A DNA stretch of 20,676 nt from Octopus sinensis (taxonomy: Eukaryota), in the NCBI RefSeq assembly GCF_006345805.1, contig NW_021824492.1, forward strand, positions 1 to 20,676, written 5' to 3'. Each line of letters begins with the position of its first letter. Positions within the stretch are counted from its first letter, which is position 1. This document shows, piece by piece, positions 1,604 through 19,664 of the stretch. A program made the position numbers and the translations under genes. Below the pieces are notes generated by a model. That model did not search any database and was not told where the DNA came from. It saw nothing but the letters and a program-made list of their open reading frames with translations.

Positions 1604-1722
1604 GTCTAGTAATGGGGCATATCAGCCCTCAACAGAAAAAAGGAAGGCTTTCCTATCCGCGTGGGATCGAACCCACATCCCTTTGTTAATGCGACTAAGT
1701 GTGTTACCTTTGCACCAGCAAA
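1604..1722 (-). mobile_element. Degenerate tRNA-like head followed by HHR-like motif
   Basis: Minus strand: A-box tggtgcaaagg, B-box in hairpin gtggg-ttcgat-cccac, then ctgttga-gggc-tgatat-gccc; GAAA not retained. Confidence 0.5.
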
Positions 1723-1783
1723 TTTACGTCCCCCGTTTCAGTTAAATTTAAGAACAATATTAGTTCGTATTTGCATATATATA

Positions 1784-2568
1784 TATATACTCTTTTATAC
1801 GTTTCAGTCATTTGACTGCGGCCATGTTGGAGCACCACCTTTAGTCGAAGAAATAGACCCCAGGACTTATTCTTTGTAAATCTAGTACTTATTCTATCGG
1901 TGTATTTTGCCAAACCTCTAAGTCACAGGGACGTAAACATACCAACATCGGTTGTCAAGCGATGGTGGGGAACAAACACAGATACACAAACGCATAAATA
2001 TATATGCACACACACACACATATATATATATACACGATGGGCTTCTTTTAGTTTTCGTCTACCAAATCCACCCACAAGGCTTTGGCCATCCCTTGGCTAT
2101 AGTAGAATACATGTGAGGGCGCGTGGCTTAGTGGTTAGGGCATTCGGCTCATGATCGTAAGGTTGTGAGTTCGATTCCCGGCGACGCGTTGTGTCCTTGA
2201 GCAAGACACTTTATTTCACGTTGCTCCAGTCCACTCAGCTGGCAAAAATGAGTTGTACTTGTATTTCAAAGGGTCAGCCTTGTCACTCTTTGTGTCACGC
2301 TGATTATCCCCGAGAACTACGTTAAGGGTACACGTGTCTGTGGAATGCTCAGTCATTTGCACGTTAATTTCACGAGCAAGCTGTTCCGTTGATCGTATCA
2401 GCTGGGACCCTCGTCGTCGTAACCGGCGGAGTCTTTTAAGAGAGGAGATAAAGAGTAAAAAAAAAAGAGAGTAGAAGACACTTGCCCAAGTTGTTACGCA
2501 GTGGGACTGAACCCGGAACCATGTGGTTGGGAAGCATCTATTTCACCACACAGCCACTACTACGATTA
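1784..2568 (-). mobile_element. tRNA-derived SINE family A, interrupted by nested SINE
   Basis: Head at about 2481-2566 (minus tggctgtgtgg ... ggttcagtccc); body matches copies at 3227-3585 and 2619-2840; candidate TSD tgcatatatata at 1772-1783 and 2569-2580. Confidence 0.9.
2112..2469 (+). mobile_element. tRNA-derived SINE family C, nested insertion
   Basis: A-box tggcttagtgg 2124-2134, B-box gttcgattcc 2169-2178, core tgtgtccttgagcaagacac, A/G-rich tail; TSD agtagaa(t/g)aca at 2101-2111 and 2470-2480. Confidence 0.92.
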
Positions 2569-6639: not shown

Positions 6640-6854
6640 GAAGCTGGCGAGCTGGCAGAAACGTTAGCGCCCCGGGCGAAATGCTTAGCGACATTTCGTC
6701 TGCCTTTACGTTCTGAGTTCAAATTCTGCCGAGGTCGACTTTGCCTTTCTTCCTTTCGAGGTCGATAAAATAAGTACCAGTTGAGTACTGGCGGTCGATG
6801 TAATAGACTATCCTCATCCACCAAACTTCAGGTCTAGTGCCTATGGTGCGAAGG

Positions 6855-7843: not shown

Positions 7844-8070
7844 GAATATTCTTTTCTTTTCTACTTTAGGCAAAAGGCCCCAAATTTTTGGGGAGGGGGC
7901 CAGTCGATCAGATCATCCCCAGATCGCAACTGGTACTGTAGTTTATCGACCCCGAAAGGATGAAAGGCAAAGTCGACCTCGACGGAATTTGAACTCAGAA
8001 CGTAACGGCAGACGAAATGCGGCTACGCATTTCGCCCGTCGTGCTACCGTTTCTGCTTGCTCGTCGCCTT
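7844..8070 (-). mobile_element. tRNA-derived SINE family B
   Basis: Reverse-complement homologue of 6640-6856; perfect TSD cgaatgtagg at 7834-7843 and 8071-8080. Confidence 0.93.
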
Positions 8071-11001: not shown

Positions 11002-11171
11002 TAAGAGATCGTACAAATAATGCATAAATCGCTGCATTTAAATATGCAACAATTTGCAATTAATGTGATTCGAAACACGTGTCGGAAAATTCTTATGAAT
11101 AAACCAACTGCAAATTAACAAAGTTTGAATGTTCAAATTCTTTATTCTCCTTATTATCAATATATATAGAA

Positions 11172-12314: not shown

Positions 12315-12790
12315 TCAAAAGATGTTGATTGATAGAAAGCTTAAAGGGGTGAATATTAATGATGAGAGGAAGAAAAGACGACGGCAGTTTCTGTGGTGGA
12401 AAGAAGCTGTCGGAATAAAAGGAGACTTATGACTAACAAGGGCTGAAAAGGGAAACGATATGTCTAGGAAGAGGAGCGGGTGACACGTTTTAAAGGTCTT
12501 GACAAAGAGTGTCTGACCAAAAAGTTCATGAGGACAATGACCTTGGAAATACTTATAGAAAAAGACACAAGGAAGGCACTTTCCGACGATAAGGCAAAGA
12601 CTCCAACACAGCATATCGACAATCGATCCTGAATCTGATCAAGCAAGTGAAGACACTTCGAAGAAGCACCAGTCCAAAGATGGCAGCGATATTCAATGAA
12701 AGCTGGAATGGTGACCTCATAAAGATGCAAAATACTCTTGGACATATTCCAAGAATTTCGGACCCAGACCAAACAGAAACACATCTGCCA
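12315..12790 (-). mobile_element. Decayed non-LTR retrotransposon ORF2 C-terminal fragment (CR1/L2/jockey group)
   Basis: LHLYEVTIPAFIEYRCHLWTGASSKCLHLLDQIQDR resembles the LYKS.IRP.MEYC..VW.GA....L..LD.VQ.R post-RT motif; frameshifted continuation FFYKYFQGHCPHEL. Confidence 0.85.
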
Positions 12791-12958
12791 GTACAGGTAA
12801 CGTAACTGTTGCATTTTCATCAGAAGAAGCGATTCCAAATTAGGATCTCATCGCAGTACCTCGTGCGTTCTACGCGTGCGCATAGAGGCTGCTCTTCCTC
12901 ATCCTTTACCTGCACACGGTGCAAAACCAGTGCCCGGCATCCAAACACATATCTAAAA

Positions 12959-13477: not shown

Positions 13478-13690
13478 TTTCAAATTTCTGCAAAAGCGGA
13501 ACAAGTTCGGGCGATCCGGTGAGTTGATTACATCAACCCCAGTGCATAACTGGTACTTATTTTATCCATTCCGAAACAATAAAAGACAGAGTCGACCTCG
13601 ACGGAATTTGAACTCAGAACGTAAAGACAAACGAAATAACAGTAAGCACTTTGCCCGGCGCGCTAACGATTCTGCCAACTCGCCGCCTTA
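13478..13690 (-). mobile_element. tRNA-derived SINE family B
   Basis: gtcgacctcgacggaatttgaactcagaacgtaa is identical to the 7844-8070 copy; head ends ctcgccgcctta. Confidence 0.92.
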
Positions 13691-14837
13691 ATAGAAACCT
13701 ACAATAGGAAATGTATTTACGACTATTAACACTGTTGATCCCTTCTTTTTTAAGGTTGTACACAGACTGATTTAAGATGCATTTAGCTGTTATGTCTAGC
13801 AGGTCGAGCCCACTGATGGTGGTAGTTTTGATAATGATGGCGATGATGGTTACTGAAAGTGGTGGCGCTGATGTTGTTAATAAATAGAGGTTGTGCATGG
13901 AGATATTAGGAGTCATTGTGAAGGTGGTGGTGATGATGGTGATAATGGTATTGTTGTTTGTGATGGGGTTTGGGGAATGGGGCTTATTAATGATAATAGT
14001 ATCTGAGTGAGGAGATGAAAAACGGATGTGGATGGGCGCTGTGCTATTAAACTACAAATCTCAAGTCCTTCAGGACCTCATCAAAACCCGGAATCAACGT
14101 TTTCACAGAGCGAAATTTGCCAATTCTGTTTAAACACTAAGTTGATGAGAAAAGTAGGACGCAGACTCTTCTCGCGTTTCAAAATAGTTGTTGTGTTGGT
14201 ATTTTTATATTTAAAGACACAGACACAGTCCTCACGGACACACACAAGGACACACACAGGCATACTCACACAAATATTAATATAAACACAGCCATACGCA
14301 ATGTGTTACCGAAAAGGAAAACTATAAATGTCACTAAATGCGACTAGGGTGTTAGGACACCTTCATTGCTAGAAATAAGAGCTAAAATGGTCTACTTGCT
14401 GTAGTGAAGGCACATAAATTGTATCCATATATGCTGAGAGGGATGTAATCGGGCAAACACCGATCGAGAATTCGATAGGTACAAATATATATATGTATAT
14501 ATATGTATATGAATATGTATACATGAAATATAACATGTTTGTGTGTGTGTGCGTGTGTGTGTGTGTGTGTGTATGTGTAGATGCATATGATTCCAAATAT
14601 ACATACATAATATATACATATAATATTTATGTGAAATAGAAAGATGAATAATCTTTAGTAGATTAATCAACAGTTTAACCGATACCTTAGTAGCAAAAAT
14701 CACAGCAGTAAACAGCACGGTTGGAGTACAAACCATCTGGCGTTGCAACCGTGCGTTGGTGCGGATAATTGAAATTAAAACATTATTGGTGAATTGAAGA
14801 AATGGAGCTGAACGCAGATTGAACAGAAATCGTTTAT

Positions 14838-14923
14838 TTCATTCTACACGTGTTCGAAAGGCACAAATTACCAAAATCCGATTGAATAATGGGACCATAT
14901 TGTGTCTTTCTCTTCAGGAAGAA
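14838..14923 (-). ncRNA. Mirror copy of the minimal hammerhead ribozyme
   Basis: Reverse complement of the 15021-15106 HHR, but reads GAA instead of GAAA. Confidence 0.7.
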
Positions 14924-15020
14924 AAAAGGAAATCCGTTGGAAAAACAAAAACAGAACAGAGGCGATTTGTTTTTTGCTCCGCCTCTGTTCTGTTTTTGTT
15001 TTTTCCAACGGATTTCCTTT

Positions 15021-15106
15021 TTCTTCCTGAAGAGAAAGACACAATATGGTCCCATTATTCAATCGGATTTTGTAATTTGTGCCTTTCGAAACACGTGTAG
15101 AATGAA
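15021..15106 (+). ncRNA. Minimal type I hammerhead ribozyme
   Basis: Stem I ttc; CTGAAGA 15027-15033; stem II gaaagacacaa/ttgtgcctttc; GAAA 15088-15091; palindromic CACGTG; TA; gaa. Canonical core, predicted cleavage after GUA at 15099. Confidence 0.88.
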
Positions 15107-15192
15107 ATAAAACGATTCTGTTCAATCTGCGTTCAGCTCCATTTCTTCAATCACCAATAATGTTTTATATATATATATATATTATATATAAT

Positions 15193-15223
<31 letters not shown>

Positions 15224-15365
15224 TATATATATATTATCTATACTACTTGTACACGAAACAGGGAATAAGAATGGTGCAAACAATTTAAGGTAAAGAACAA
15301 TACAGGAATAATTACAAGACTACACACACACATACACAGACACACATGCGTACATACACAAGAGA

Positions 15366-15854
15366 TATTGGCGGAACATTCCCATCAAAACTTCTAGCAA
15401 GTGCGAACTTAATCGGCTTAATATGGCTGTTTGAGGCAGACAAAATCAAAATATGCACCTTATAGAAATCAGCTGCCCTGCTGATGTGAATATCTCTTTG
15501 AAAATCAAAGAGAAAGAAGATAATTATGGACAACTGCTTCGAAAGTTTCAGCTTCTATATCGGGATTCTAAATCTACGTGTGATGCCAATAATAATTGGT
15601 GCATTTGGCATTATCAATAACTGCCGAAGTGACAATCTGTATAACCTAAGGTTTTCAGAGAAAGTAATTAGCTAAACACGCGCATAACCTATACAATCTT
15701 TAAGTGGAAAAATAAAAATCTGTAAGACTTTTCTCAAGTTTAAATTGTGACATTGTTTTTGTTATCTGCATTCCAGCGATGGAGCTTTGTATCTTTGTTA
15801 GAAACCGGCCTCTTCTTCAGAGGACGGATTTAATTAATATCAGAAGAGAAAATG
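15366..15854 (+). mobile_element. R4/Dong-type LINE 3' fragment (restriction-like endonuclease domain plus 3' UTR), pseudogenised
   Basis: YWRNIPIKTSSKCELNRLNMAV*...IEISCPADVNISLKIKEKEDNYGQLLR...PIIIGAFG...KICKTFLKFKL* (stop 15748-15750); internal stops and frameshift; ends in (CATA)n. Confidence 0.88.
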
Positions 15855-19619: not shown

Positions 19620-19664
19620 ACACCTGATGAAGGCTGGAGAGTATATCAGCCGAAATGTTATGGT
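19620..19664 (+). ncRNA. Minimal hammerhead-like motif, partly degenerate
   Basis: acac CTGATGA(19624-19630) a ggctg-gagagtatat-cagcc GAAA(19652-19655) tgtt atgg; core and stem II intact, stems I/III decayed. Confidence 0.72.

Follow-up and report, generated by a model that had tools for sequence, protein, structure and literature searches.

Insertions of Penelope-like elements (PLEs) carry an inverted 5′-truncated copy of the element and a tail of 30–40 bp on one side only, and they are biased towards (TA)n sequence (PMC8557442, PMC3846280). In Schistosoma mansoni, pairs of hammerhead motifs on opposite strands lie 100–700 bp apart (PMC4209133). For Poseidon from Anolis carolinensis the insertion chemistry has been followed in vitro: AT-rich DNA is nicked on both strands, and reverse transcription starts at two internal sites of the RNA, the spacing of which equals the length of the tail. 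The Poseidon hammerhead is protein-dependent and is dispensable for insertion (PMC11167929). A PLE origin has also been proposed for the non-LTR retrozymes (PMC7229834; bioRxiv 10.64898/2026.07.22.740005). As for octopus, Naiad families with a (TA)n preference are tabulated in the supplement of PMC8557442; two motifs of the repeat described here were absent from the one supplement file of that article that was searched, and none of the four titles listed in a literature search on octopus Penelope hammerheads concerned this repeat family.

The locus described here lies in a 20,676-nt stretch of Octopus sinensis DNA (contig NW_021824492.1; hereafter the window). It holds two copies of a highly abundant repeat with hammerhead anatomy, which meet head to head at a 2-nt junction, are extended on one side only and are flanked by TA-rich sequence. 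As in the EN+ Penelope-like element Pen2a_Av and its relatives, the inverted 5′-truncated copy is about 190 bp long (PMC3846280, PMC8557442). The locus consists of two 5′-truncated 3′ ends of this repeat, and we consider it likely that they were laid down in one fold-back insertion at a TA-rich site, by the reverse transcriptase-endonuclease of a PLE. Its parts are as follows.

14640–14775, minus strand: tail of about 136 nt, which extends the left copy alone at its 3′ end; delimited by contig depth (outer end ± about 15 nt)
14776–14964, minus strand: left arm, a 5′-truncated sense copy
14838–14924, minus strand: hammerhead copy, with CUGAAGA from 14917, a GAA core and a predicted cut at 14845
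14963–14964, no strand: inversion junction, a CG dinucleotide common to both copies, placed by loose contig ends
14965–14979, plus strand: spacer or hairpin loop, 15 nt of family sequence that form part of the right copy
14980–15167, plus strand: right arm, a 5′-truncated sense copy without a tail, ending 68 nt past the predicted cut
15020–15107, plus strand: type I hammerhead, from descriptor search, Rfam alignment and folding
15166–15242, no strand: (TA)n microsatellite adjoining the right end, from repeat annotation; likely the insertion target

The two arms, together with the spacer, make up the longest inverted pair in the window (14776–15167, ranked first of 8698), and the 392-bp palindrome of the preliminary description thus stands at exactly these coordinates. 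In a gapped alignment of the arms all 185 aligned bases are complementary; the arms differ by seven 1-nt indels, every one of them within a homopolymer run, and by no substitution. The mirror symmetry ends at the border between repeat and microsatellite and no flank is copied. A TA-rich simple repeat also adjoins the outer end of the left tail, and no target-site or other flanking duplication is readable at the locus. Folded as RNA, the palindrome forms a single hairpin (−304.3 kcal/mol, z −43.6; none of 100 shuffles was equally stable). Rfam microRNA matches over this hairpin were rejected, since they scored below their gathering scores and reflected generic pairing only.

The right arm carries a complete type I hammerhead core: CUGAAGA at 15027–15033, GAAA at 15088–15091, U15098 and A15099, the last being the nucleotide after which the RNA is predicted to be cut (GUA). 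Stem II (15034–15087) opens with the pair G15034–C15087, is built of 5 + 5 bp and, with its loop, spans 54 nt; an ATG inside it meets a stop codon within 22 codons. In stem I a bulge separates 3 bp from 4 bp. Stem III is the palindrome ACACGUGU at 15091–15098 (plus strand), with CACGUG within it, and has 2 bp in the monomer and 8 bp in a dimer, with a 6-nt insert. On both strands of the window, this motif was the sole match of the descriptor search; one of 200 first-order Markov resamples contained any match, and in none of the 200 did a palindromic stem III occur together with a stem II of 5 bp or more. Alignment of 15021–15105 to the Rfam family Hammerhead_1 (RF00163) matched all core letters, but its score of 14.9 bits (E 0.67) lies below the gathering score of 34; the model has 45 positions, while the motif carries a 50-nt insert. 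In a scan of the whole window against Rfam there was no hammerhead among the best 150 of 170 matches. The complete core, long stem II and self-complementary stem III claimed earlier are therefore all present on the right arm and an Infernal-type search does align the core in full, if at a low score, whereas the label "minimal" fits loosely given the 54 nt of stem II and loop and the insert in stem III.

The preliminary description also reported a second canonical copy on the minus strand, and as assembled this is not the case. The left-arm core, which begins 110 bp from that of the right arm on the opposite strand, reads GAA in place of GAAA, one A being absent at about 14853–14855. If indels are assumed to make up one in five natural changes, the probability that all seven arm differences are 1-nt homopolymer indels is about 1e-5. 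Family contigs (from four of 21 listed sequencing runs, aligned to 14625–15850) carry the longer homopolymer run at four of the sites (14832, 14852, 15071 and 15115). None of the 21 runs is recorded as RNA; six, with shares of 0.17–0.18, are putatively RNA and lie outside the four used. Since contig depth over 14852 is small compared with that over the intact right-arm site, GAAA is the form found in most of the repeat family. The seven indels, the missing core A included, are thus most likely assembly errors, as judged from their type and from the contigs.

The family contigs also define how far the repeat extends. In all four runs the summed contig depth in the tail reaches that in the arms; because high depth continues leftward for about 136 nt past the palindrome, the left copy is tailed and the right copy is not. 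The element is therefore not confined to 392 bp, as had been supposed, but runs left to about 14640. The tail contains a hairpin with a 9-bp stem at about 14717–14757, the fold of which is not significant (z −1.5 to −1.7). In run X1 the summed depth over 14625–15116 was 3e5–1.4e6 compared with 43.7 in an exact single-copy contig, a ratio of 7,400–33,000-fold, or 240–1,060-fold once divided by 31 for overlap; the ratio, bounded by 240- and 33,000-fold, is not a copy number, but it marks the repeat as very abundant, and this holds for the tail too. In metagenome contigs there was no match to an exact 24-nt motif of the family. Three viral and 44 metagenome loci matched a pattern of core plus CACGTG and were set aside as chance, as 0 of the 47 reached 4 bp in stem II together with 3 bp in stem I.

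Contigs with loose ends placed the junction. Among 24 listed of 1320 such contig rows, the family diverges from the palindrome behind 14964 in three contigs of run X1 and before 14963 in five contigs of run X3, running on upstream rather than tracking the palindrome centre. As the family continues past these positions, the spacer must be the right copy's own and the CG at 14963–14964 common to both copies. We observed at least seven joints from antisense to sense at other points (runs X1, X3 and X5; depth 35–275), two among the 15 listed out of 179 and five among the 12 listed out of 21. For the two joints with given side lengths these are 24 and 26 letters, below the 30-letter threshold for caution. 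The four joints that fall within the arms have offsets of −6, 26, 27 and 78 nt, compared with 17 nt at the present locus. There is thus moderate evidence, at the level of contigs, that head-to-head joints recur at varied places in the family. Three joints from three runs fall at 14708–14709 in the tail; switching may recur at this site, or the alignments may be short and due to chance, and we give these joints little weight.

The family contigs also show sequence variation. Among the best 40 of 62 substitution rows, 14 lie inside the element; none of these 14 falls in the core, in stem I proper or in the first five pairs of stem II, and just seven distinct arm sites vary. With so few varying sites, the absence of variation from the core may be due to chance. 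An A at 15076 would pair with U15045 and a T at 15052 retains a G-U pair, while the A15054C variant disrupts a distal pair; none of the listed variants is a double compensatory change, and both observations tell against the PLE reading. An A at 15019 would give stem I two more pairs. We dropped the idea that the T at this position and its mirror, 14926, is a mutation private to both arms: at the mirrored site A makes up only 26, 95, 14 and 6% of depth in the four runs, and the T allele probably exists in the repeat family. Since the arms show no substitutions although the family contigs vary at the seven listed arm sites, both arms point to a single template.

Whether the right-arm ribozyme would act depends on its context. 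The monomer hammerhead fold (−11.8 kcal/mol) lies 3.2 kcal/mol above the best fold (−15.0 kcal/mol), and its pairing probability is about 0.03 for stem I, and 0.03–0.06 for stems I and III. Between two molecules, the stem III palindrome pairs over 8 bp at −10.3 kcal/mol, in agreement with the dimer model of PLE hammerheads (PMC4209133, PMC6765202), and the parent RNA would be expected to cut after A15099 only as a dimer held by this palindrome or with the help of a protein. In a read-through RNA, made in either direction, the antisense arm would be synthesised first and a duplex of about 185 bp would mask the ribozyme. Because forcing the hammerhead fold in such an RNA costs about 120 kcal/mol, the masking by dsRNA proposed earlier holds as a prediction of the folding model.

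How, then, might the locus have arisen? Followed along the minus strand, it begins at the short end with antisense sequence, which runs on across the spacer; at the junction it turns to sense and stays so up to the long end. This is the geometry expected of fold-back copying under the self-priming model for the Adineta Penelope (PMC3846280). Under the fold-back reading, a GIY-YIG endonuclease would have nicked AT-rich DNA and reverse transcription would have begun at internal sites of the element RNA, with two start sites leaving a tail on one end only. The antisense strand would have halted upstream of the hammerhead core, at a distance of about 65 nt, folded back on the CG microhomology with a 15-nt loop left over, and been copied to give the mirror arm. 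A longer template or later trimming would be required for the extra tail that the copied arm bears, and the hammerhead would be a passenger of the pseudo-LTR. The 2-nt microhomology at the junction is itself within chance, and the Anolis Poseidon chemistry would, by analogy, apply at this octopus locus too. The earlier proposal of an inverted PLE pseudo-LTR agrees with the anatomy, with a tail on one side only, with the high copy number and with the head-to-head joints found elsewhere in the family contigs, and goes beyond the data in that no RT/GIY-YIG parent was found. That the insertion is young finds loose support in the lack of substitutions between the arms and the few majority differences from the family contigs.

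Several other routes could lead to inverted arms. A single insertion could later have been inverted and duplicated at the DNA level, by a template switch in replication or by repair, as any fold-back would give identical arms and a short loop, and TA microsatellites are unstable. We regard this as very unlikely, because the mirror stops at the repeat–microsatellite border without copying flank, because similar joints occur in other family contigs and because PLE insertions typically show this arrangement. We rejected twin priming on a single RNA, as it would give adjacent pieces rather than one sequence twice and here the arms repeat the same sequence. Priming of two RNAs, perhaps paired through stem III, at two nicked strands and from two internal start sites, followed by microhomology joining of the cDNAs head to head, is a more serious competitor, and one that we nonetheless hold to be unlikely. 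It would directly yield one tailed and one tail-less arm, and the intermolecular pairing of the stem III palindrome (−10.3 kcal/mol) would suit it, as does the Anolis PLE protein, which nicks and extends both strands, with two RNA start sites and a predicted dimer (PMC11167929). However, independent truncations are not expected to end as close together as 17 nt, three of the four other in-arm joints are likewise offset by less than 30 nt, and no substitution separates the arms.

Inverted arms of about 190 bp, high abundance and TA at the ends are also what would be seen if the locus were a DNA transposon of the foldback or MITE type, with terminal inverted repeats of this length and a hammerhead inside by coincidence, and palindromic DNA transposons of such size exist (Harbinger in frog; PMC5625713). 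Yet the family sequence extends on one side only and also upstream of the centre, flanking duplication is absent, and joints at varied places are evidence against a MITE with a fixed centre, so that this origin is highly improbable. An equally remote prospect is a fold-back artefact of long reads or assembly. The all-homopolymer indels between the arms do indicate a local consensus of poor quality, and the locus's own junction at 14963–14964 was absent among the contig rows listed. The spacer, however, is genuine family sequence that the other arm lacks, the mirror symmetry goes no further than the element border, the two flanks differ from each other, and nearby unique pieces match three of the runs exactly. 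The fold-back insertion is the reading that we prefer.

The coding part of a parent element was sought as well. The window contains no open reading frame for RT plus GIY-YIG and protein search produced none; the six frames tested gave no Pfam match to a PLE domain, which counts against the PLE reading, and the open reading frames within the palindrome had no real Pfam match. A stop-free frame of 66 codons (14641–14838, minus strand) runs from the cut site through the tail, and no credible homologue of it was obtained (0 of 45 candidates; a protein search gave three unrelated repetitive proteins). The repeat thus behaves like a PLE end and is a putative member of the PLEs, a non-autonomous, retrozyme-like parent being as possible a source as an autonomous PLE (PMC7229834; bioRxiv 10.64898/2026.07.22.740005). 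Two coding remnants lie nearby. One, a frameshifted fragment at 15365–15830 (plus strand), is high-copy by contig depth and has no Pfam match; its translation presumably resembles an R4/Dong-type LINE at the end that holds the restriction-like endonuclease. The other, an open frame at 12464–12847 (minus strand), has no relevant Pfam match and presumably resembles the reverse transcriptase of a CR1/Jockey-type LINE in its C-terminal part.

Other repeats in the window include two further hammerhead remnants. At 11003–11165 (plus strand) lies a decayed end of a related hammerhead repeat, with a GAAA-CACGTG stem III, a GUC cut triplet, a long stem II region, an AATAAA and a pyrimidine-rich end running into TA; the first half of its core has been lost to the adjoining TA array. 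An unrelated minimal hammerhead at 19620–19664 (plus strand) has CUGAUGA, a bulged A, a stem II of 5–6 bp and GAAA, with decayed stems III and I and an (AAT)n array nearby, and it matches the PLE minimal consensus. A SINE-like motif occurs in three copies (6715–6739, minus strand; 7972–7996 and 13591–13615, plus strand; 0 of 100 shuffles), and presumably belongs to a repeat of octopus genomes. Weak tRNA-like Rfam matches at 1653–1724 (minus strand) and 2119–2188 (plus strand), at 25 bits and hence below 29, are possibly SINE heads.

Upstream of the junction (14963), by about 10–30 nt, some family contigs reach a motif on the opposite strand that consists of CUAAGA, a 3-bp stem and GAAAC (five contigs in run X3 and one shorter contig in X2, among the 24 loose-end rows listed of 1320). 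The first half of its core has 6 nt, the essential G5 being absent, and the contigs do not show the 3′ half of the motif. The end of another family, decayed or fused, is a likelier reading than an active ribozyme, and it is improbable that the parent repeat bears functional hammerheads on both strands. If it did, cutting would give the antisense RNA a defined 3′ end, which is the template required by the self-priming model of Penelope inversions; alternatively, the parent would stand out as a retroelement of the genome that carries viroid-like ribozymes of either polarity. If active, the antisense ribozyme would probably be a novelty.

As a single locus, the palindrome carries little weight and is one more inverted Penelope-type end, likely an ordinary PLE-type insertion scar in an arrangement already described in print. 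The family, with its hundreds to thousands of copies, varied head-to-head junctions and unusually long tail, is useful material: tabulated junction offsets and end sites could separate fold-back copying from double priming, an unresolved step of PLE replication. No host gene was identified for the locus, and the feeding of ADAR or siRNA pathways proposed earlier is hypothetical. If transcribed, the self-contained hairpins would be candidate ADAR substrates; palindromic repeats of frog are heavily edited and octopus gave the highest hyper-editing signal (PMC5625713).

The locus can be set beside four described systems. Metazoan non-LTR retrozymes are likewise abundant, non-coding type I hammerhead repeats of low GC content (PMC7229834; bioRxiv 10.64898/2026.07.22.740005). 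Unlike the locus described here, which is one inverted pair, they are arranged as head-to-tail tandem units of 150–450 bp (PMC7229834), and the window contains no second copy on the same strand that would amount to a tandem. With PLE hammerheads the right-arm motif shares the type I core, the G10.1–C11.1 pair (here G15034–C15087), the long helix II and the short helix I, as well as the palindromic helix III (positions 15.2–16.2 with loop 3), a U-rich 5′ flank and an AU-rich 3′ flank. It departs from their consensus in that the nucleotide after A9 is absent, A15033 running straight into G15034, and in the size of the helix II region, 54 nt here compared with 6–8 bp in the PLE hammerheads described (PMC4209133).

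Among PLEs proper, Poseidon has its hammerhead in the pseudo-LTR, as here, and shares the AT-rich target and a tail explicable by two start sites of reverse transcription. The Poseidon ORF starts in stem II, while here the ATG in stem II is soon followed by a stop and the tail is much longer (PMC11167929). At about 136 nt, the tail also exceeds the 30–40 bp of published PLEs, which speaks against the PLE reading (PMC8557442, PMC3846280), and unlike EN+ PLE insertions the locus is without an ORF, a direct pseudo-LTR or a readable target-site duplication (PMC3846280). The architecture comes close to that of Pen2a, in which the junction offset is likewise short (an overlap of 15 bp), one arm is extended and the target is AT-rich (PMC3846280).
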